Shown: positions 1-11,508 of the stretch, one piece after another | How positions within the stretch are numbered: the stretch's first letter is position 1 | Layout: each line of letters opens with the position of its first letter | Virus record (IMG/VR): IMGVR_UViG_3300009174_000004 | Coordinates: 1 to 31,777 of that record | Reading direction: 5' to 3' (one strand) | Source of the DNA: a virus | Taxonomy: Duplodnaviria > Heunggongvirae > Uroviricota > Caudoviricetes | DNA length: 31,777 bases | Notes under the pieces: generated by a model | What the model saw: the letters and a program-made list of their open reading frames with translations, nothing else | Told to the model about the DNA's origin: nothing | Database searches by the model: none | Position numbers and translations under genes: made by a program

Positions 1-584
1 CCCCCTAGCACCACCGCACCAACCGCACCACGGGCCCCTGCCCCTGGCACCTACGGTCCACGGTGGACCAGCCGTGCTAGGGGCGGGGGCCACGGTGCCG
101 GCCCCGGTACGGTGCCCCAGTGGCCAGGTCCCACGGTGGCCGAGCACCAGGCCCCCATGACCAGCCCCAAAGAATCTTGAGCCAGCCCCTTGCGCTGACC
201 AGGGGCAACGAGCTAGGCTCTAGCTGCAAGCACAAAGCACCTTGACACCTGAATATTCACCCAGAATCAAGCCTCTCAGCCCAGAACCAGAACCTTCGAT
301 TCCTGCTCCTCGCGCACGCGCCAGGCCCCGGATGAGGGATTATCGCGCCAAGGCCCAAAAGCCCACAAACAAGCGCCAGGCAACGAGGATCTTGATTCAG
401 AGGTCCAGGCACCAACGCAAAGTTGAAGCGTTGGTGCTTTTTTGTGTCTCTCTGAGACTTTGCTCCTCTTCAATGCTTCAAGAGTTGAGTGTGCTGCACG
501 CAACTTCCCGAATCTCATGTACAAGATCATGAACCTTGATAGGGATCCTAGAAAAATGACATGCATGTTGCCTACCCTGGGCCT

Positions 585-1016
585 ATGACCTACGAGCTAG
601 GACCAGCACCCAGAGAGATCAGCGAAGAACAACTGGTCGAGGACGGACCTCGGGTCAGGGCGCTGATCGTGCAACGGCTGGAATTGGTCTGGGCCCGGTG
701 CGAGCAGCGGATCCGGGACGACATGGACGGCACCCGCCCCATCGACCCCCGGTTCCTGGAGATTGGGCTACGAGCGGAGAAGGACCTGGCCCTGCACTAC
801 CGGCTCAGCAAGGTCCCCGCCCCCGTGGAAGAAGAAGATGATCCTTCCCTGCAGGCCGTCGACCGAGGAGCGTTGGTCCTCGACTTCCTCGAAGGAGTCG
901 AAGCCCGGATCAGGCAAGGCCAAGCAGCAGCAGCCGCCTGGGGTGCCGGTAAGCAGTCCGAGCCCGCTGCCGGGACCGGTGCCGAGGAGCTAGGCCAGGA
1001 CAGTACTGCTGCCTGA
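585..1016 (+). CDS. hypothetical protein
   Basis: ORF 561..1016. Start moved to ATG 585 because TACCCT (573-578) lies 6 nt upstream, the leaderless pattern seen repeatedly in this window. Confidence 0.6.
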   Translation: MTYELGPAPREISEEQLVEDGPRVRALIVQRLELVWARCEQRIRDDMDGTRPIDPRFLEIGLRAEKDLALHYRLSKVPAPVEEEDDPSLQAVDRGALVLDFLEGVEARIRQGQAAAAAWGAGKQSEPAAGTGAEELGQDSTAA

Positions 1017-1048
1017 TTCTTGGCTGACCTAGGACCAAGGTGCTGGAG

Positions 1049-1543
1049 CTAGCCCCAGACCCGGCAGCTTGGCGGATGAACCTCGGCGCTGTGCAGTCCC
1101 AGCCCACAGGAACAAGGTGGCAGCAGGTCCTCGATGTTGTCGTCTCCAAGGTCCGCGCCAGGATCATGACGAAGGTCATGGACCGCTGGTGCAGGTACCT
1201 GAGCGCTGTAAGTAGTGGGAGGACGTGCCACTGGTGCCTGGGGCTGGGACCGTACGCGCATCGCTGCGGGTAGCTGCATGACCGGTGCAGCAGTCCAGAT
1301 CTTGGGGTCCTTGAGGTTGTGATTGGGGCTGAAGGCTTCTAGCCCCTGACCACCCCACGCCTGGACGATGAGCGTGCCCAACTGCGGCTTGTGGGTGGCA
1401 GCGAGACGCTCCCGCATCTCCGCCTGCCGGTAGATCAGTGCCCTGATGCCGGCGGCATCGCGCCATGGGGTCAGCCTCAACTCCACGCGCCTGATGGTTC
1501 CGTCCAGGAGCAGGTCCCACCAGACCGCTGGCATCACCGGCAT
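1049..1543 (-). CDS. hypothetical protein
   Basis: 164-aa ORF; TAACAT -10 box 6 nt before the ATG (leaderless). Confidence 0.55.
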   Translation of the reverse strand: MPVMPAVWWDLLLDGTIRRVELRLTPWRDAAGIRALIYRQAEMRERLAATHKPQLGTLIVQAWGGQGLEAFSPNHNLKDPKIWTAAPVMQLPAAMRVRSQPQAPVARPPTTYSAQVPAPAVHDLRHDPGADLGDDNIEDLLPPCSCGLGLHSAEVHPPSCRVWG

Positions 1544-1729
1544 CTGTTCATGTTAGCACATTTCTTGTTACAGCACAAGGGGCTGGGCAACGTTCCTGGT
1601 CCAGTTCGGACCGCAGACCGCATTTGCGCAGGTCAAGGCACCTTTTCGCGGATCTTGGGCAGGAACGTTAGGAACGATCGATGAGCGTCGTTCAATGGTA
1701 CTTTTTCCAAGATCAAATGTCTTCTACCT

Positions 1730-1935
1730 GGTACTATTTATCTTTATCTATTCTATTTGATCTATCAGGAACGTTAAAAAGACGAGGAGAGCGCTAGAAA
1801 AGGAGAGAAAAAAAGAATAGTTATAGTAAAAGTATTTTAATTGCAGGAGGGAGGGGGTGTAGAGATGAATATAGGACAAAGAGGGACAGAGAAAAATAAT
1901 ACTAATAAGACTTAAATTTATACAGAGAAGCGATT
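1730..1935. other. AT-rich, purine-skewed non-coding tract (possible replication origin)
   Basis: Abrupt A/T- and purine-rich stretch (e.g. AAAAAAAGAATAGTTATAGTAAAAGTATTTTAATT) in an otherwise GC-rich sequence; no credible ORF. Origin function is inference. Confidence 0.5.
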
Positions 1936-2135
1936 GGTAGCCAGATCCAGGAGGAAGATCGCGCATCGTTCCTGCTAGGCCCTCTGACCTGCGGAAACTA
2001 CCGATCGCAACAGGAACGATACTCTCGGTGTTCAAAACGGGTCCTGGCCGAGGAGGATGGGGGCTGGGGCACTGTCAAATGAGGGGCTCTGGTTACTGAA
2101 TCTGTAACCAAGGGGCCCGCTGTGACAGTGGGGGG

Positions 2136-2318
2136 CCTGGTCCCGGGAGCCTGGTCCTACGTCACTCGATGCTGGCGCCTGGTGCTGGCGCAAGCCCCAT
2201 CCCTTGACATCAGGGTCCTGGTCCATGGGAGGATGAGGACCTTGACCCGTCCTGGTATCGGGACCTGGTCCCTTGGTTCTAGGTCAATCCCCATCCCCTG
2301 CATCGAGGTCCCTGGTCC
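2136..2318 (+). repeat. five direct copies of CCTGGTCC (iteron-like)
   Basis: Copies at 2136, 2150, 2217, 2264, 2311; a sixth at 1595. Confidence 0.55.
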
Positions 2319-2332
2319 AACAGGAGCGGACC

Positions 2333-2361
2333 TTGACCCCCATGTGGGGGTGGGGTATGGT
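2333..2361 (+). promoter_or_regulatory. sigma70-type promoter with palindromic operator in the spacer
   Basis: TTGACC-17 nt-TATGGT; overlaps ACCCCCATGTGGGGGTG (2336-2352). Confidence 0.75.
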
Positions 2362-2368
2362 GCTGGGT

Positions 2369-2641
2369 GTGGAGAAGACTTTAACTACGCCAGAGGGCCT
2401 CGCCGCGTACATGCGTCAGACAGTCGATGCAGACGACTGGAACCGTCGTGCCGCCGAGGTCCTTCGGGTCAACGGTGACAAGTACCCGAGCTTCTGGTGG
2501 GAGACCGTGATGGCTTCTGGCCTGTATCACGAGGTCGTTGGCGGTGGCATCAGCATTGTCAACCTCGATAGCGACGGCAACGAAATCGGCCGCACTACCT
2601 ATGATCCAGTGACCGGTCAAGAATTGCTACCAGGGAACTGA
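2369..2641 (+). CDS. hypothetical protein
   Basis: In-frame GTG 7 nt after the -10 box of the 2333 promoter; 90 aa. Confidence 0.65.
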   Translation: MEKTLTTPEGLAAYMRQTVDADDWNRRAAEVLRVNGDKYPSFWWETVMASGLYHEVVGGGISIVNLDSDGNEIGRTTYDPVTGQELLPGN

Positions 2642-2645
2642 AGTG

Positions 2646-2813
2646 ATGTCGAAGTTCGATGTGACCTTGACGTGGCAGGTAGAGGTCAGCGCCTTAGACC
2701 CCGCCAGCGCCGTCAGCATCGCTGTCGAAAAGGTCCGCAGAGCGAACCCAGATGCCGTTGTGACTGACGTGTGGGCTCACCGCCTGCCCGAGGAAGACGA
2801 GGAACAAGAATGA
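2646..2813 (+). CDS. small hypothetical protein
   Basis: MSKFDVTLTWQVEV..., 55 aa; ATGA overlap with the next gene. Confidence 0.55.
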   Translation: MSKFDVTLTWQVEVSALDPASAVSIAVEKVRRANPDAVVTDVWAHRLPEEDEEQE

Positions 2814-3304
2814 ACGAGATCCTCACCGTCACCAACGAGGTCAAGCCACTTGCCTGGCTTGGTGATCCCGGCCTCAAGGAAGAGGTCGTGCTTCGGATGA
2901 AGCAGCACCGAGCCGAGGACTCAATTGTCCAGGGTTATTACCAGGAGTACGCACCCGAACTGGCCAGCCAGTACAAGGGCTGCCTGCTGGGCTGCACCTT
3001 ACCCCAGATGAAGGTTGACAACGCGGACGAGATCGTGGCCTGGCACCACGAGGTGGAAAGGCTTTACGGCATTCCTGTGCCTGTTGCCTGCCTCCTGGAG
3101 GACCTGTTCGAGAACATGGACTTTGACGAGGCTGCTGAGTTCGCTGTGGAAAGCATCGAGGCCATTCCAGTGGGGGCCGACCTTGCTGCCGTGACTGCGT
3201 ACTGGTTTGCCGACTACCAGACGGCGCCCTGGAATTGCGAGAAGCATGAGGCCAAGGTCCTCGATCTCCTGAGGAGCGCTCCGGTTCCAGAGCCAGTGCG
3301 GTGA
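2810..3304 (+). CDS. phage hypothetical protein
   Basis: 164 aa from the ATG coupled to the upstream stop; GCLLGC motif; GC-biased codon usage. Confidence 0.7.
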   Translation: MNEILTVTNEVKPLAWLGDPGLKEEVVLRMKQHRAEDSIVQGYYQEYAPELASQYKGCLLGCTLPQMKVDNADEIVAWHHEVERLYGIPVPVACLLEDLFENMDFDEAAEFAVESIEAIPVGADLAAVTAYWFADYQTAPWNCEKHEAKVLDLLRSAPVPEPVR

Positions 3305-3405
3305 GCGTCGAGGCATACCGCGCGATCGGTTTCTTTATGTTCATGCTGGGGCTACTCACAGTCCTGGCCTATGTGTGGGCGGCAAGAGGAGGGAGAAAGC
3401 CGTGA
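3301..3405 (+). CDS. small membrane protein
   Basis: 34 aa with one hydrophobic segment; GTGA overlaps at both ends. Confidence 0.4.
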   Translation: MSVEAYRAIGFFMFMLGLLTVLAYVWAARGGRKP

Positions 3406-3623
3406 TTGCAGGACCACGGCGTCTGCGTTTCTGGCGTTTCCGCGAAACGCGGAACAAGGTTGTGTACCAGGAAGAGTTCGACCGGGGTGACCTGCCGGTG
3501 ATTGGCCAGGTCTACATCAGTAAGGACGCGCTGGAGGCGTGGGGCAATCCCAACGAACTGGAAATCACGATTAGCCCAGTGGGTGTTGCCCGAAGGCTTG
3601 ATCCTATTGCCGGTACAAACTGA
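3402..3623 (+). CDS. hypothetical protein
   Basis: GTG start after GGAGGGAG SD; 73 aa; translationally coupled on both sides. Confidence 0.6.
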   Translation: MIAGPRRLRFWRFRETRNKVVYQEEFDRGDLPVIGQVYISKDALEAWGNPNELEITISPVGVARRLDPIAGTN

Positions 3624-3766
3624 TGGGCGTGTTCTGGCTCCTGGTGTTCGCAGTCATCGGCGGAATGGTTGGCTGGGAACTTAAGGGACTCATGGTTGAG
3701 CACCAACAGGAGAAGGAGGAGCTAGTCCGCGATGGCGTCAGTGACGATCGTCCGGGGTCTGCCTAG
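3623..3766 (+). CDS. small membrane protein
   Basis: MGVFWLLVFAVIGGMVGWELK..., 47 aa; TGATG overlap with the upstream gene. Confidence 0.4.
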   Translation: MGVFWLLVFAVIGGMVGWELKGLMVEHQQEKEELVRDGVSDDRPGSA

Positions 3767-4622
3767 TTGCGGCAAGACCACCTGGGCCCGGGAATGGGTG
3801 GAGCAGGACCCCACCATCCGAGCCAGGGTTAGCCGGGCTGACCTTGCTGCTATGGCTGGTGGGGACCTGAGCGTGGAGCAGGCCAAGGCGTTACGCAACG
3901 TCACCTTGTCCGCGCTGCTGGCAGCCGACATGGACGTGGTGGTGGACGACATCCACCTGGCCGACCAGTCGGTGCAGGAGGTCCTGGCCGTGGCTCGGCA
4001 GTTCAACTGCCTGATTCTGGTCTACGACATGTCCCAGACGCCGCTGGATGAGGTGCTCCATCGCAACTCCCTACGGGACCGGCCGGTGCCCGAGGATGTG
4101 ATCGCCGGGTACCACCGGACGTTCCTTGTAGGCCAGTCTTTCCCGCTGCCGATTCCGCCAGCCCCGCCGCTGCCGGAGCCGCCCCAGGTCTACGTGCCCA
4201 TCGAGGGTGTGCCCACATATTTGGTGGACATCGACGGCACCGTGGCCCTGCAGGGGGACCGGGGGCTCTACGACTGGGATGCAGTGGGCCTGGACCGGGC
4301 CAACGACCCCGTCATTCGGCTTCTGGAGGCCCTGGACAGTACGGGCCTGTGCCAGTTCGTCTTTCTGTCCGCGCGGCCGGAGATTTGCCGTGAGCCCACC
4401 GAGAAGTGGCTGATCAATCACGTGGGTGTGGAGTGGGGCCGGCTGTTTATGCGGGACACCGGCGATGAACGCCCAGACGAGGTGGTCAAGATGGAGATCT
4501 TCGATCGTGAGATCAGGGAACGCTATAACGTGGTGGGTGTTTTCGACGACAGGAACAAGGTTGTTTCCATGTGGAGATCCTTGGGCCTGACGGTGTTCCA
4601 GGTCGCCGACGGCGACTTCTAG
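3732..4622 (+). CDS. pseT: polynucleotide 5'-kinase / 3'-phosphatase (T4 PseT-like)
   Basis: N-terminal P-loop GLPSCGKTT plus C-terminal HAD domain (DIDGT, LSAR, FDDR, VFQVADGDF). Confidence 0.9.
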   Translation: MASVTIVRGLPSCGKTTWAREWVEQDPTIRARVSRADLAAMAGGDLSVEQAKALRNVTLSALLAADMDVVVDDIHLADQSVQEVLAVARQFNCLILVYDMSQTPLDEVLHRNSLRDRPVPEDVIAGYHRTFLVGQSFPLPIPPAPPLPEPPQVYVPIEGVPTYLVDIDGTVALQGDRGLYDWDAVGLDRANDPVIRLLEALDSTGLCQFVFLSARPEICREPTEKWLINHVGVEWGRLFMRDTGDERPDEVVKMEIFDREIRERYNVVGVFDDRNKVVSMWRSLGLTVFQVADGDF

Positions 4623-5573
4623 AGCTTGCCTGGGCTTGGTGTGTCATGGCGAGGCAAGGGCGCGGCAGGTGAGGTACGGCCGGGTGAGGCTGGGCTAGGC
4701 GCGGTGTGGCAGGTAGGGCACGGTGGAGCAGGGTTTGGCGGGGTTGGGCAGGTGAGGTGCGGCAAGACTAGGCAGGGCAGGGCTTGGCGTGGCAGGCAAG
4801 GTGCGGCTGGGCTGGGCATGGTGAGACAGGGCTTTGGTGCGGCAGGCGAGGCCAGGTGCGTTGCGGCATGGTGAGGTAGAGCTTGGCAGGTGTGGTGAGG
4901 CAGGGTGTGTCTAGGCGGGGTTCGGTGTGGCAGGTAGGGCTCGGCTTGGTGCGGCGGGGAAAGGCTAGGCCAGGTGTGGCAGGGTGCGGCAGGTATGGCG
5001 CGGTGAGGCGAGGTGAGGTTGGTTCCGGCAAGGCCTGGCAGGTGAGGTCAGGCGGGGCACGGCACGGTACGGCACGGTTTGGCAGGCAGGGTGGGGTGCG
5101 GCAAGGCGGGGTGCGGCAGGTGGGGCTTGATGAGGCAAGGCTGGTCATGGCGCGGCAGGTAGGGCTTGGTACGGCTGGGCCTGGCAAGGTGTGGTCTGGC
5201 AGGTAGGGCTTGGTTCGGTTGGATGGGTGAGGCGGGGTCCGGCAGGTTTGGTAAGGCTCGGCAAGGCGTGGTCAGGCAGGGCAGGTGTGGCATGGCACGG
5301 TGTGTTGTGACAGGGTTCGGCGAGGCAGGTACGACATGGCGCGGTCGGGTTCGGCAGGGCGAGGCGAGGTCGGGTCTGGCAGGTTAGGTTTGGCAAGGCG
5401 CGGCAAGGCTGGGCTTGGTAGGGCAGGTGGGGAATGGCTTGGCGTGTTGAGGCAAGGCAAGGCCTGGTGGGGCAGGCAGGGTGCGGCATGGCGAGGTGTG
5501 GTCAGGCTCGGTGGGGCAGGTAAGGCTCGGTATGGCTTGTCGTGGTAAGGCTAGGTTCGGCAGGTCTGGCTCT
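4623..5573 (+). repeat. GGY-NN pentamer array with GGCA punctuation (VIPR-like guide RNA array candidate)
   Basis: About 170 GGYNN units in 20 full blocks of 6-11 plus flanking blocks, separated by GGCA at 4664, 4708, 4747, 4791, 4841, 4885, 4929, 4988, 5037, 5081, 5115, 5154, 5198, 5241, 5280, 5324, 5378, 5422, 5471, 5515, 5559. NN differs between blocks. Confidence 0.9.
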
Positions 5574-5608
5574 AGCTCAACCCGACACTGCAGGGCTATC
5601 GTCGTGGC

Positions 5609-5800
5609 ATGCCGGTTATCGTCGCCCTTGAGGGGCTCTGTGACCCTTGTGCCAAGGTAGGTAAGGCTCACGTCCCTAGGTCGCTGCCTGGGGACGTGGT
5701 CATTTGCTGCCTGTGTGGCGTCGTCGAGGCCCGGGATGCTGATGATCGGCCCTGTGGGTTGACGCTGGACCAGTGGGACGAGCTTGAGGAAGCTGCCTAG
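5609..5800 (+). CDS. small Cys-rich hypothetical protein
   Basis: CxxC and CxxC-like pairs; TATCGT 6 nt before the ATG (leaderless). Confidence 0.55.
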   Translation: MPVIVALEGLCDPCAKVGKAHVPRSLPGDVVICCLCGVVEARDADDRPCGLTLDQWDELEEAA

Positions 5801-5839
5801 TCGCTTATCATGACTTGATCAATCAACGAGGGGTGGAAG

Positions 5840-6040
5840 ATGACTGACCTTTACCTGCGCCTTGACTACCGGCAGTACAAGCGATTGGAAGAGCAGCTAA
5901 GGAACTGGGAGTCCGTCGAGACCTCCCACACCACTGTAGACGGCTACTACCACAAGGCCCTACGTCTCGACGTCGGAGACCTGACTCTGGAGGTTCAGGG
6001 CCCAGCCGTGAAGGAGCCTATCCGCGAGCCCGAGGCATGA
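5840..6040 (+). CDS. hypothetical protein
   Basis: 66 aa; GAGGGG SD; ATGA overlap with thyX. Confidence 0.65.
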   Translation: MTDLYLRLDYRQYKRLEEQLRNWESVETSHTTVDGYYHKALRLDVGDLTLEVQGPAVKEPIREPEA

Positions 6041-6729
6041 TCGTTCGGCTGATCGCTCACACCACCACGGTGAACGTCGGGGCGTGGGAAGAGGCGGGAT
6101 ACATCCTCGGCGGGCAGCGCATTGCCGACGCCGATGATCTGGCCGAGTTCGCCGGTCGTCTTTGCTACCAAAGCTGGGACCGGCCAAATCCCAAGACGGC
6201 TGCCAACAGCGACTACCTGGGAAACATCATCAATCAGGCGCACTTCTCGGTCCTGGAGCATGCCTCAGCCACCTTCTATGTGGCCGGGGTGTCCAGATCC
6301 TTGTCTCACGAGCTTGTCCGACACCGGCACCTGTCGTTCTCACAGGTCTCTCAGCGGTACGTGGACGAGTCGCAGGCCGAGTACATCGCGCCTCCGGGGT
6401 GGAAGAACCTGCCCGCACACATGATTGACGCGACGCTCAGTCAGGGCGCGATCAACGATGTCGTGGAGTCGACGCATCGCGCTTACGCCGTCATCGTAGC
6501 CACGCTGGAGCACTCGGGTATGACTCGCAAGGAGGCTCGCCAGGCCGCCCGCGCCGTTCTGCCCAACATGACGGAGACGAAGCTCGTCGTCACCGGTAAC
6601 ATGCGGGCCTGGCGCGAGGTCATCGCCAAGCGTATTTCGCCCCATGCTGATGCGGAGATCCAGGAGCTTGCCAAGGAGCTTCTTCGTCAGTTGAAGGTCA
6701 TAGCTCCCGGAACGTTCCAGGACCTTTAG
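6037..6729 (+). CDS. thyX: FAD-dependent thymidylate synthase
   Basis: ThyX motif ELVRHRHLSFSQVSQRY; HFSVLEH; AR.VLP; NMRAW; HADAEI. Confidence 0.95.
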   Translation: MIVRLIAHTTTVNVGAWEEAGYILGGQRIADADDLAEFAGRLCYQSWDRPNPKTAANSDYLGNIINQAHFSVLEHASATFYVAGVSRSLSHELVRHRHLSFSQVSQRYVDESQAEYIAPPGWKNLPAHMIDATLSQGAINDVVESTHRAYAVIVATLEHSGMTRKEARQAARAVLPNMTETKLVVTGNMRAWREVIAKRISPHADAEIQELAKELLRQLKVIAPGTFQDL

Positions 6730-8093: not shown

Positions 8094-8300
8094 CTAAGTA
8101 GCTAGGGCGCCGGGCCCACGTGCTGGGTCCAGGCCGTGGAACTTGGGCCAACAGCCCGAGCACCTCACTACGCCAGTGTACTCGAAGCAGGCGGCTGCTG
8201 GGGCCCCGCAGTCAGCGCAGGTCCACCAAATGTTAGGCCCCCACTCGGTTTCCACGTATATTCGTCCGTCTGAATATTGGTGCTCGTCACCTACAGCCAT
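8094..8300 (-). CDS. small putative Zn-binding protein
   Basis: CADC and CSGC pairs; AGGAG SD before ATG 8300. Confidence 0.55.
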   Translation of the reverse strand: MAVGDEHQYSDGRIYVETEWGPNIWWTCADCGAPAAACFEYTGVVRCSGCWPKFHGLDPARGPGALAT

Positions 8301-8389
8301 CGATGCTCCTACATGTATCGATGAATGCTCAGGAACTTTACTCTGCCAAAAATTTGGAGGAAGCATCAGCGATGCTTCCTGCGCGCTAT

Positions 8390-8998
8390 CTATAGTAGAT
8401 GTCCGTGCCGCTTCTTGGACATGAGGTAAGCGATAGTCGTTGGAGTCGGCTTCGCGATCAGGGGAACCCTGACCACCCGAATACCTCCAAGTTGCAGCGC
8501 CTCAATCTTTTCTGGGTTATTGGTCAGAAGTCGAATGGACGAGAGTCCAAGACTCTTGAGCACTTCTGGAACTGCGCTGTAGTCGCGGAGATCCGGCGGC
8601 AGTCCAAGTTTGGTGTGTGCTTCATACGTGTCGAGACCTTCCTCGTGCATTAGCCTATAGGCTGCGGCCTTGCGCTGAGCACCAGCGCCCCGCCCATCTT
8701 GGTCGAGGTAGATCAGGACTCCGCCTTGGACAGTCAAAAGCTCAACGCTGCGCCGAAGTTGCCAACCGCAGTCGCATTCGAGTGAGTGCAAGACCTCCGA
8801 GAGCATGCAGCGCGAGTGCACCCGTACGAGGGATCCGTTCTGCGGCGTACCATAAATTGCTGCTATGTCAGCGTCTCGGTGGCCATCCGTCCGAAATTTT
8901 ACCGTTGCAATTGGAAGCTCGCGTCCTTGCACGCTTAGCCTATCGGGGATGACATCATCGACATCCGGAAGCTCGCGTGGGATATTCTGAATGGTCAT
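8390..8998 (-). CDS. ribA: GTP cyclohydrolase II (RibA)-like protein
   Basis: RVHSRC, ECDCGWQL, YLDQDGRG, DLRDY, IRLLTNNPEK, C-terminal GHLL. Confidence 0.85.
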   Translation of the reverse strand: MTIQNIPRELPDVDDVIPDRLSVQGRELPIATVKFRTDGHRDADIAAIYGTPQNGSLVRVHSRCMLSEVLHSLECDCGWQLRRSVELLTVQGGVLIYLDQDGRGAGAQRKAAAYRLMHEEGLDTYEAHTKLGLPPDLRDYSAVPEVLKSLGLSSIRLLTNNPEKIEALQLGGIRVVRVPLIAKPTPTTIAYLMSKKRHGHLL

Positions 8999-11508
8999 TG
9001 CAAAAGTCCTAAAACTCCGAACTCCAGGTCCTGGGTCAGGCCCTGCCAGTAGGACGTGCCACCGACCTTTGTGGACTCATAGCCCATGGCCTTGAGTCGG
9101 TTCTGGTACCGACGCATGCCCAGCGGTATCTGGTGGTTCTCGGTGCAGTAGGCCTCGAACATCCCCCGCAGGATGGACGACTTGATTTGCGCACCAAGCT
9201 GGGGAATCAGTGCTCCGTCCTCGATGCGGTCCCGGACGAAGCACGCAACCATGTCCACGTCGACACGGTAGGCCTCGATGTCCTGGCGTACTGACTCAGG
9301 CTCGGCCAGACCGTAGAGCCGGTACTGCTCCATGCCCTCGATGAGCCAGTTCAGGATGCCGTCGGCCTCCTTCGCCAGGATCTGCGCGTAGCCCAGGCGA
9401 TGACCTTCCATCGTGATGAATTCGGTGTTCATGCTGACGGTCTTGGCACGTTGCCAGAATGCGTTGTCGTCGCTGTTGACCTTCGGCAGGAAGTTGGTGG
9501 CAATCCACACCACGCAGTTGGGGCGCCACTCGCTGTATGCCTCGTAGAGTCCGCGCGAAGTCACTACGTCGCCACCGGTGACCCGCTTAACGAGGTCCTC
9601 ATCCAGTTGCTGACCCTCCGGCATCTCGGAGGTGCAGACGTAGCGTGCTCCTCGGAGCCGGTGCAGGTCAAAGGTCTCGGTGTTCTTCTTGGTTCGGAAG
9701 GTGGACGCTGGTGCTGTCGCCCCGTAGCCACCGAACACGGTGCTCATGACCGAGGTCAGCACGGACTTGCCGGTACCGGAAGGCCCGTGCAGCATGAACA
9801 TGACGCGCTCGTCGGCCTTGCCGGTGAGCGAGTAACCCATAGCCCGCTGGACATAGAGGCGAAGGTCCATGTCCGGGAAAGCGTCCTCCATGAACTTCTC
9901 GAACATCGGACACTGAGCATCCTTGTCGTAGCTGGCGCCCATCTTCTTGGTCATCAACAGCTTCGGGTCGTGCTCGGGGATGAAGGTGTTGTTCTCCAGG
10001 TCCAGGATGCCGTTGGGCAGGTTCAGCAGGTCGATGTCCAGGTTGAACTGGTCGCTGGTGATGGCGATGCCGGGCTCGGTGGCGAACATGGCGATGGCGG
10101 CGTCGATTTTTCCCTTGTTCATCAACGCCGAGGCCCGCGCATACAGCTTGCTCGCGGCCTTGATTTCTTCCTCGTCGCCACGCATCTCGGCCGCCTGCAT
10201 TGCTTGGCCCGCCTGCGTCCGGGCAAACTCGGCACACTCGACGGCAGCACGTTGGATGTAGTTGTGCTCGTCCTTCACCCAGACGGCACCGTCCCACCGG
10301 TACCAGCAGTTTTCCCTGGTGTTGAACCGGAACTCGTCGCCGTGTTGCTGTTTCACTCGCCGTCCGTTACCTACATCAGTAAGGTCTAGACCCGTATGTG
10401 AGGGTAACGATACCTCGACCTCGGCGCCATCGTCGGCAGTCCATGGCACGAGGGCCGTGACCGTGGTTCCGATCGGGTCACCGTAGCCCTGCTGGCGAAG
10501 AGACTTGGCAGCTACGGACAGGTTTCCACCGTGATAGTAGGTGGCGTAGACCATGAACTTGCTCAGTGGGGTTTCCGTTGGCAGGCCAGCCGAGGTGGAG
10601 AAGACGTACAGGCAGTCACTGCCGTGCCGGTAACCCGTGGTAGCAGAGTGTCCGTCCTTAGGGTTTTTGCCAGGACGCACCCAGAATGTCTCGTGACCGA
10701 ACCGGTGGCTGACCTGCCACCCCTGGTCGGTGAACCAGGGTTCATTCCAGTCGGCCTTCTCGTTGAACTCGTCGCCGGGACGCATGCCCAGACCCATGGC
10801 CTGGCGTTGCGCCAACGTTGCTGATGGCTGCGCCGGGGGTGACGTGGGATCTGCTGGTGCCGGCGTGGCATCGAGTGCTGCCGTGATGGCGTTGTGCAGT
10901 GCTACTCGCTGTGACCAAGTGATCTCAGGAATGACACCCTGTTGCCCGGCCACGGTTGACCAGTCATCACCGGTCGGGTGGCACTGGCCCCCGGACGGGG
11001 CCACGATGACGTAGCCGCCTTCGCCTCGGGTCTCGGCCAGCGTCTTCATCAGCCGAGGGTTGCTAGGGTCAGGCTCCTGGGCCAGCTTCGTATTACCGGG
11101 AATATCGTGTTCGGTAATTCGATAAAGGAAGTGGAGGCCGCCGGTCGGGGTCAGTTCTGCGTAGCCGTGGTAGAGGAGCGATTCCCAAAGGTCGATAATC
11201 CCCCGGGCTGCGCACTCCTTCTCTACCTTCTTCAGCGCCTCGGCTGTGGTTGCTGCTGACTCAAGCTCCGTCATTTCCAGGTTGCCGGAAATGGCCCCGC
11301 AGATGACCGCTACTCCGACGTCCTGGCCTTCGCGCCAGTAATGCTCGACCTCGTGCTTCGTCATCCTCGTGCGTTGCAGAACCGACCAGTCCCGAGTCGG
11401 GCGCTTGGTCCCGTTCGCCTGGATCGGGACGACCGAGACGCCTGCCATCCACCACGGGAGAGCGATGTTCTTGTGGGCTACTTGACCCTCGACCACAACA
11501 TCTGGCAT
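8995..11508 (-). CDS. DNA primase-helicase (N-terminal primase-polymerase, C-terminal D5/P4-type SF3 helicase)
   Basis: Walker A GPSGTGKS; RYVCTSE Walker B region; IATNFLPKV motif C; LDLTDVGNGRR and LLNLPNGILDL D5_N-like segments; ETRGEGGYVIVAPS prim-pol motif. Start set at ATG 11508 (GGAG SD). Confidence 0.92.
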   Translation of the reverse strand: MPDVVVEGQVAHKNIALPWWMAGVSVVPIQANGTKRPTRDWSVLQRTRMTKHEVEHYWREGQDVGVAVICGAISGNLEMTELESAATTAEALKKVEKECAARGIIDLWESLLYHGYAELTPTGGLHFLYRITEHDIPGNTKLAQEPDPSNPRLMKTLAETRGEGGYVIVAPSGGQCHPTGDDWSTVAGQQGVIPEITWSQRVALHNAITAALDATPAPADPTSPPAQPSATLAQRQAMGLGMRPGDEFNEKADWNEPWFTDQGWQVSHRFGHETFWVRPGKNPKDGHSATTGYRHGSDCLYVFSTSAGLPTETPLSKFMVYATYYHGGNLSVAAKSLRQQGYGDPIGTTVTALVPWTADDGAEVEVSLPSHTGLDLTDVGNGRRVKQQHGDEFRFNTRENCWYRWDGAVWVKDEHNYIQRAAVECAEFARTQAGQAMQAAEMRGDEEEIKAASKLYARASALMNKGKIDAAIAMFATEPGIAITSDQFNLDIDLLNLPNGILDLENNTFIPEHDPKLLMTKKMGASYDKDAQCPMFEKFMEDAFPDMDLRLYVQRAMGYSLTGKADERVMFMLHGPSGTGKSVLTSVMSTVFGGYGATAPASTFRTKKNTETFDLHRLRGARYVCTSEMPEGQQLDEDLVKRVTGGDVVTSRGLYEAYSEWRPNCVVWIATNFLPKVNSDDNAFWQRAKTVSMNTEFITMEGHRLGYAQILAKEADGILNWLIEGMEQYRLYGLAEPESVRQDIEAYRVDVDMVACFVRDRIEDGALIPQLGAQIKSSILRGMFEAYCTENHQIPLGMRRYQNRLKAMGYESTKVGGTSYWQGLTQDLEFGVLGLLQ

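Follow-up and report, generated by a model that had tools for sequence, protein, structure and literature searches.

The window analysed here, the whole stretch of 31,777 nt (positions 1 to 31,777 of the IMG/VR record IMGVR_UViG_3300009174_000004, a Caudoviricetes phage), carries a rightward run of same-strand genes from 2273 to 6729 that encloses an array of five-base repeats of the form GGYNN (Table 1). The array was claimed in an earlier note on this DNA to follow directly on the pseT stop and indeed its first pentamer begins 10 nt after the stop codon of the polynucleotide kinase-phosphatase (PNKP) gene. As PNKP, ORF63, ORF66 and thyX surround the array on one strand it is embedded in a rightward operon, and its GGY strand is the coding strand of its flanking genes. 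A promoter and terminator scan gave nothing at the array borders, including no sigma-70-like promoter directly upstream, so read-through from the PNKP gene is our assumption. Across the array's end the region 5555-5720 folds with -75.7 kcal/mol (z = -2.65), and the 13-bp stem-loop that it contains is possibly the 3' end of an RNA or a processing signal; a consensus scan for terminators called none at this stem-loop. The cysteine pattern of ORF63 (CxxC ... CCxC ... C) is one that a small zinc-binding protein may have. ORF63 and the hairpin overlap, and one of the two, the ORF or the part of the hairpin in ending an RNA, may be spurious.

Table 1. Features of the window and of the contig k141_259995 that extends the record.
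Feature	Sequence	Position	Strand	Evidence
Inner part of inverted terminal repeat; the record begins within it	window	1-2378		L338/L339, ends of the 104.8-kb contig
PNKP gene (polynucleotide kinase-phosphatase, pseT-like, 296 aa)	window	3732-4622	+	Pfam HAD_PNKP E 9.3e-46, AAA_33 E 2.3e-11
First array unit, partly degenerate, closes at first GGCA	window	4633-4667	+	parse
Twenty guide units, putative staggered vrRNAs C1-C20	window	4668-5562	+	parse, 5n+4 grammar
Two last pentamers past final GGCA; array end	window	5563-5572	+	parse
ORF63, Cys-rich	window	5609-5800	+	translation, gene map
Stem-loop, 13-bp stem, ~100 nt 3' of array, within ORF63	window	5668-5700	+	folding
ORF66	window	5840-6040	+	translation, gene map
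thyX	window	6037-6729	+	Pfam Thy1 E 8.9e-52
vipr, 225 aa, G-rich loop	k141_259995	2309-2986		Vipr HMM E 1.1e-81; hhalign vs profile A1 100%, E 2.4e-49
vap, 156 aa	k141_259995	3100-3570		HMM of ~164-aa family E 3.1e-45; hhalign 99.6%
Array A, ~1.07 kb, 26 GGCAGGY delimiters	k141_259995	3580-4654
Array B, ~1.29 kb, 29 GGCAGGY delimiters	k141_259995	8275-9560

The letters of the array region (window 4623-5573) are 50% G and their autocorrelation peaks at lags of 5, 10, 15 and 20 and then of 34, 39, 44, 49 and 54, with the strongest value (0.547) at lag 44. A rhythm of 5 nt that is broken by a single 4-nt step about every 44 nt produces this pattern. Dynamic-programming parsing of 4633-5572 yielded 170 pentamers with a perfect GGY in 87.6%, as expected from the earlier description of some 170 pentamers with near-constant GGY, and all 16 of the 16 possible dinucleotides are in use at the NN positions. 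The motif GGCAGGY was counted 21 times, from 4664 to 5559, which equals the 21 GGCA phase breaks reported before, and GGCA precedes GGY in every one of the 21 delimiters. Successive spacings are 44, 39, 44, 50, 44, 44, 59, 49, 44, 34, 39, 44, 43, 39, 44, 54, 44, 49, 44 and 44 nt; they reproduce exactly the range of 34-59 bp with 44 in 10 of 20 given in the earlier note, and 18 of the 20 equal 4 modulo 5. Each of the units C1-C20 consists of 6-11 GGYNN pentamers followed by the 4-nt GGCA step. Eight pentamers are found in 11 of the 20, ten of these being 44 nt long, and unit 13 measures 43 nt with an internal 4-nt GGTT slip. That no two blocks share their NN string also held: the strings of the units all differ, the highest pairwise identity being 0.70.

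Runs of at least four GGYNN repeats cover 575 of the 951 bases, where 500 shuffled sequences gave 1.2 bases on average and 40 at most, and the 95.8-kb record holds a single array of this kind, on the + strand only. We found no coding signal in the array: each of the six frames has 2-12 stops and 3-nt periodicity is absent, indicating that the region is non-coding. A search of Rfam gave nothing above noise. Identical copies were present in other rhizosphere metagenomes (one contig of 1,071 nt with 0 differences); the gain or loss of blocks, for which the earlier note had proposed a comparison among relatives, was not seen in these copies.

Such a composition recalls VIPR, the CRISPR-like system of phages whose first description dates from 2026 (bioRxiv 10.64898/2026.04.26.720920; 10.64898/2026.04.26.720927). 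Vipr is a minimal RAMP protein on vrRNAs made of alternating GGY and NN (10.64898/2026.04.26.720920, 10.64898/2026.04.26.720927, 10.64898/2026.10.15.759431), and the NN pairs of a vrRNA read double-stranded DNA with every third base skipped (10.64898/2026.04.26.720920, 10.64898/2026.04.26.720927). The users are mostly phages, and the system is aimed at rival mobile elements (2026 VIPR preprints). In the methods of the discovery preprint vrRNAs are defined as YNNGG/GGYNN tandem repeats (bioRxiv 10.64898/2026.04.26.720920), and the array has the corresponding stretches of at least four tandem repeats, in which GGY is conserved and NN hypervariable. The same preprint mentions "staggered arrays with overlapping vrRNAs" (10.64898/2026.04.26.720920), whose neighbouring vrRNAs, according to the legend of its fig. 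S18, overlap by 1 nt such that the end of one is the start of the next (10.64898/2026.04.26.720920); it presents the staggered arrays as lacking validation by small-RNA sequencing (10.64898/2026.04.26.720920). In the window a GGCA step of 4 nt within the 5-nt rhythm (GGCA[G]GYNN) produces a 1-nt overlap, as in the staggered arrays of that legend. Consistently, the units lie 5n+4 nt apart in 18 of 20 spacings, share one base with their neighbours and have no separate tail.

To see in which surroundings this grammar occurs elsewhere we scanned IMG/VR for GGCA-(GGYNN)x8-GGCAGGY, which returned at least 118 loci, and clustered the ORFs within 3 kb of these arrays into families. Among the matches listed a family of about 220 aa was encoded on the array's strand, usually upstream, at 85 loci by clustering and at 91 of 118 by HMM, and a family of about 164 aa lay directly adjacent to the arrays at 68 loci by clustering and 82 by HMM. 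The profile of the larger family (A1) matches PDB 36pp_D, "SUSP1 Vipr protein", with E 1.6e-12, and the clustered vipr genes are on the array's strand in 85 of 85 cases among the matches listed. Within that same set 27 loci are without vipr; in 24 of them the sequence that precedes the array is shorter than 250 nt, and the remaining three are L038 (where it measures 811 nt), L020 and L015. At the other informative loci among the matches listed vipr is at most about 0.7 kb from the array. Our array resembles these canonical arrays, whose spacings are likewise of the form 5n+4 (44 nt 95 times, 49 nt 69 times, 39 nt 62 times and 54 nt 46 times), in its NN composition as well as in its GGY conservation (0.876, for a canonical range of 0.76-1.0 and a median of 0.90). 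GGCA-punctuated arrays also adjoin vipr in actinobacterial chromosomes (Streptomyces, Nocardia, Microbispora and others) and in the sibling phages G003 and G004. Arrays unaccompanied by vipr were seen in G008, G010, G012-G014, G016 and G017, but these are contig fragments, with the array of G012 at a contig end, and thus give no proof of solo arrays. The published system, the similar staggered grammar and the presence of GGCA units beside Vipr homologues in IMG/VR together uphold the earlier proposal of a VIPR-like guide locus. The window's array differs from the loci compared in other respects: no guide is common to it and any other array examined, arrays A and B of the same phage included, its flanks have no homology to those of other VIPR loci, and the PNKP gene is absent from the 118 other VIPR loci (those listed) and from the five sibling phages.

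The record itself, of 95,777 nt, is rated 100% complete by CheckV and has no inverted terminal repeats. Neither vipr nor vap was detected in it with HMMs on six-frame ORFs (profiles A1 and A2, E<=10), and hhalign against 73 genes, a 167-sequence profile and jackhmmer gave nothing either; as a control the same 167-sequence profile recovers vipr in the siblings G003 and G004 with E of about 1e-65. Inverted terminal repeats are present in siblings (about 12 kb in G005, 123 nt in G002) and their absence from the record raised doubt over its ends. Using the exact end-proteins of the record we reached other assemblies, whose contigs extend past both of its ends. On the left they add 1,429 nt. Two contigs, L338 and L339, have this 1.4-kb extension and window 1-2378 in common with 100% identity and then diverge, L338 continuing into the PNKP arm and L339 into an arm with a DUF5052 gene and vipr. 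The extension on the right consists of 11.2 kb of unique sequence and an inverted copy of the left end. Within window 1-440, which is C-rich and free of ORFs, lie several CCACGGTGG-like palindromes, possibly protein-binding sites within the terminal repeat. Just past the record's right end a 203-aa ORF (L343:1240-1851) has, on visual inspection, the look of a nuclease of the PD-(D/E)xK or resolvase-like kind; it had no match to the Vipr profile.

Both arms are united on the ENA contig k141_259995 (L346; 104,809 nt), which shares 99.99% identity with the record along 8.85 kb. The contig opens with window 2257-2378 in forward orientation followed by the DUF5052 gene and several small genes, and from 11,289 onward it equals the record's right end reversed, at 99.99% identity. 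The same 122 nt (window 2257-2378) stand at both of its ends in opposite orientation, which together with L338 and L339 indicates that the genome measures about 112 kb and that its inverted terminal repeats are at least 3.8 kb long. Near its left end the contig carries a Vipr with the G-rich loop and, in the same locus, vap together with arrays A and B, which are written in the same dialect as the window's array. At the far end, in 99,944-104,809, it has PNKP, a gene-free gap of 987 nt (exactly the length in the window), ORF63, ORF66 and thyX. The cognate RAMP/Cas7-like protein that the earlier note anticipated is thus encoded by the same phage, on its 104.8-kb contig and outside the record. 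The window's array and vipr are about 98 kb apart on one contig, in opposite arms, a distance that is atypical beside the at most about 0.7 kb of the other informative loci listed.

Taken together our data make it highly probable, as judged from sequence, that the repeats of window 4633-5572 (+) form a vrRNA array of the staggered VIPR type, with about 20 guides, and that the phage they belong to has a complete VIPR system of its own. We infer that it is the third, remote array of this system and that it meets Vipr in trans; with vipr about 98 kb away and the array within an unrelated operon, loading would have to occur in trans. The array would be transcribed rightward together with the PNKP-ORF63-ORF66-thyX operon, and the transcript would then be coated by Vipr supplied from the other arm, one protomer per GGY. 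Unit boundaries would be set by the 4-nt GGCA step, that is by the 1-nt overlap of two pentamer registers, and the NN dinucleotides of each unit would read double-stranded DNA two bases at a time, with the third left out. The predicted outcome is that genes of rival phages, or of other mobile elements, are silenced. Counted inward from the repeat boundaries, the array begins after about 2.3 kb on the left and vipr after about 2.2 kb on the right, both pointing inward, and one may conjecture that this symmetric layout fits a joint early expression of the two arms. Guide arrays might be movable modules able to work far from vipr, here as a separately regulated bank in an early PNKP-thyX operon; we propose this tentatively, as a possibility we rate at a little less than even. 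Dispersed arrays could then be intermediates toward the solo arrays of VIPR-null phages. A bolder version would make the adjacent kinase-phosphatase a candidate healer of processed vrRNA ends, a gene that the 118 listed loci lack.

Among the five sibling phages VIPR is found in two only, G003 and G004. A small GGCA-punctuated array was noticed in G003 at 61378-61635 (+), 76 kb from vipr and just upstream of a gene for a 647-aa head protein. Given this further remote array, dispersed arrays may be a habit of the phage group. Another array of G003, at 128918-130029 (-), lacks GGCA steps and adjoins an ORF with a weak likeness to vipr (E 8e-5); the genome possibly holds two types of VIPR. Megablast of the phage DNA against INPHARED gave no match, tblastn with the primase found only Arthrobacter phages at about 30% identity, a PNKP-based search for related loci returned one distant phage without an array, and a primase peptide search for related loci returned none.

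We looked for targets of the guides by comparing the 1-nt-skip (NNx) rule with 0-, 2- and 3-nt-skip controls and with shuffled guides. In the phage's own genome, the five siblings, the 118 listed VIPR loci, 80 bacterial vipr loci and G006, 1-nt-skip matches did not rise above these controls. Large collections were scanned for exact matches with five of the 20 guides (1, 7, 8, 16 and 19). Guides 16 (20 nt) and 8 (18 nt) had 0 exact matches in viral contigs, and guide 7 (22 nt) had 0 in genome contigs and metagenome contigs. Guide 1 gave three independent exact matches, in contigs of 48-56% GC, the best-supported family of which is not wobble-aligned; these matches, too, are at the level of chance. 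About four independent exact matches were obtained with guide 19, which was not found in those Actinomycetes genomes searched of 401. One of its matches is in a 63%-GC viral contig of 38 kb, where C19 (window 5475-5518) pairs 16/16 with L222:6273-6295 under the 1-nt-skip rule, antisense to a PF04860 portal gene (L222:5204-6736, minus strand). This match is wobble-aligned, the skipped bases being codon third positions; with a chance probability of about 0.25 it could be chance and is taken as a lead only. No other guide of the window's array matched the L222 portal contig. Guide A1 of array A matches L175:4506-4525 (G004 84506-84525) at 14/14, wobble-aligned and antisense, in the gene for a giant head protein of the sibling G004 (>6,000 aa), and has no match in the phage's own genome at up to one mismatch. 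It too is a lead, one near chance. In the local scans and in the exact scans of collections with five of 20 guides, no convincing target of the window's array was found.

The readings that compete with a working remote array differ in what they make of these results. The array could be a non-functional copy, duplicated or translocated and drifting without selection, since it is far from vipr, its targets were not found and it has no guide in common with any examined array. Yet its GGY conservation and 5n+4 punctuation match those of vipr-adjacent arrays with the delimiters intact in 21 of 21, the sequence is identical in several metagenomes and it sits within a same-strand operon, which makes such decay unlikely. 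The lack of targets could also mean a decoy or buffer, a Vipr-binding RNA with target-less NN by which Vipr, whether from this phage or from a rival, is tuned or titrated, and there is precedent in satellite solo vrRNAs, which redirect Vipr (10.64898/2026.10.15.759431). We consider this very unlikely: the NN composition is like that of canonical guide arrays, and missing targets are to be expected for an uncultured soil phage when five of 20 guides are scanned in collections for exact matches.

From the record it would have appeared that the array was an orphan solo array in a VIPR-null phage, hijacking or soaking up the Vipr of a rival phage, a prophage or the host. The 95.8-kb record with its CheckV value of 100% is without vipr or vap, the flanks are unlike those of other VIPR loci and solo vrRNAs are documented (10.64898/2026.10.15.759431). 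A solo locus, however, sits in an element without vipr and vap, and both are on the array's own contig; the record is truncated and k141_259995 holds array and vipr-vap together, so that the idea of an orphan bank of 20 guides was rejected and retains scarcely any probability. Least of all do we credit that the repeat is unrelated to VIPR, either as a structural element prone to G-quadruplexes, for which the GG-N3-GG spacing could allow two-tier quadruplexes, or as a low-complexity coding stretch, for which there are overlapping ORFs of up to 139 aa. Against it stand the 2-12 stops per frame, the frame shift at each 4-nt step and the missing 3-nt periodicity, as well as the co-occurrence of the exact grammar with Vipr homologues in 91 listed loci and in the phage itself.

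With a staggered VIPR array as the favoured reading, the VIPR family gains an actinobacterial soil phage with about 70 decodable guides across three arrays. Our work indicates that a large guide array can sit about 98 kb from its protein gene in an unrelated operon, which bears on how arrays spread and on the origin of orphan arrays. It also carries a warning, as a record called 100% complete was without 11 kb of unique sequence and the terminal repeats and would have led to a false orphan call; claims that a system protein is missing need a check of the contig ends.

Compared with known systems the closest are the staggered VIPR arrays, with which the present locus has in common the GGY/NN pentamers, the 1-base overlap of units and a phage genome carrying vipr, vap and arrays. 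It differs from them, as far as the legend of fig. S18 allows the comparison, in lying about 98 kb from vipr, between PNKP and thyX in the other arm of a linear genome that has inverted terminal repeats. The type II VIPR of the Escherichia phage SUSP1, for which Vipr structures are available (10.64898/2026.04.26.720927; PDB 36pp), has a homologous Vipr, the same GGY-NN code and, as here, several guide loci around its genes. In SUSP1 each vrRNA is transcribed separately, is about 100 nt long and joins 9-16 repeats to an invariable pseudoknot tail (10.64898/2026.04.26.720920), whereas the units of the window's array have 6-11 repeats and no tail, only the GGCA step. Solo vrRNAs, documented in VIPR-null SUSP1-like phages and satellites with one or two vrRNAs each, work in the satellites by redirecting Vipr (10.64898/2026.10.15.759431). 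Like them the window's array has no adjoining vipr or vap and would need Vipr in trans, but here the phage owns vipr on its other arm and the remote locus comprises about 20 guides. The staggered type of VIPR is already known, and the window's array stands apart from the described loci by its distance from vipr and its place in an unrelated operon.
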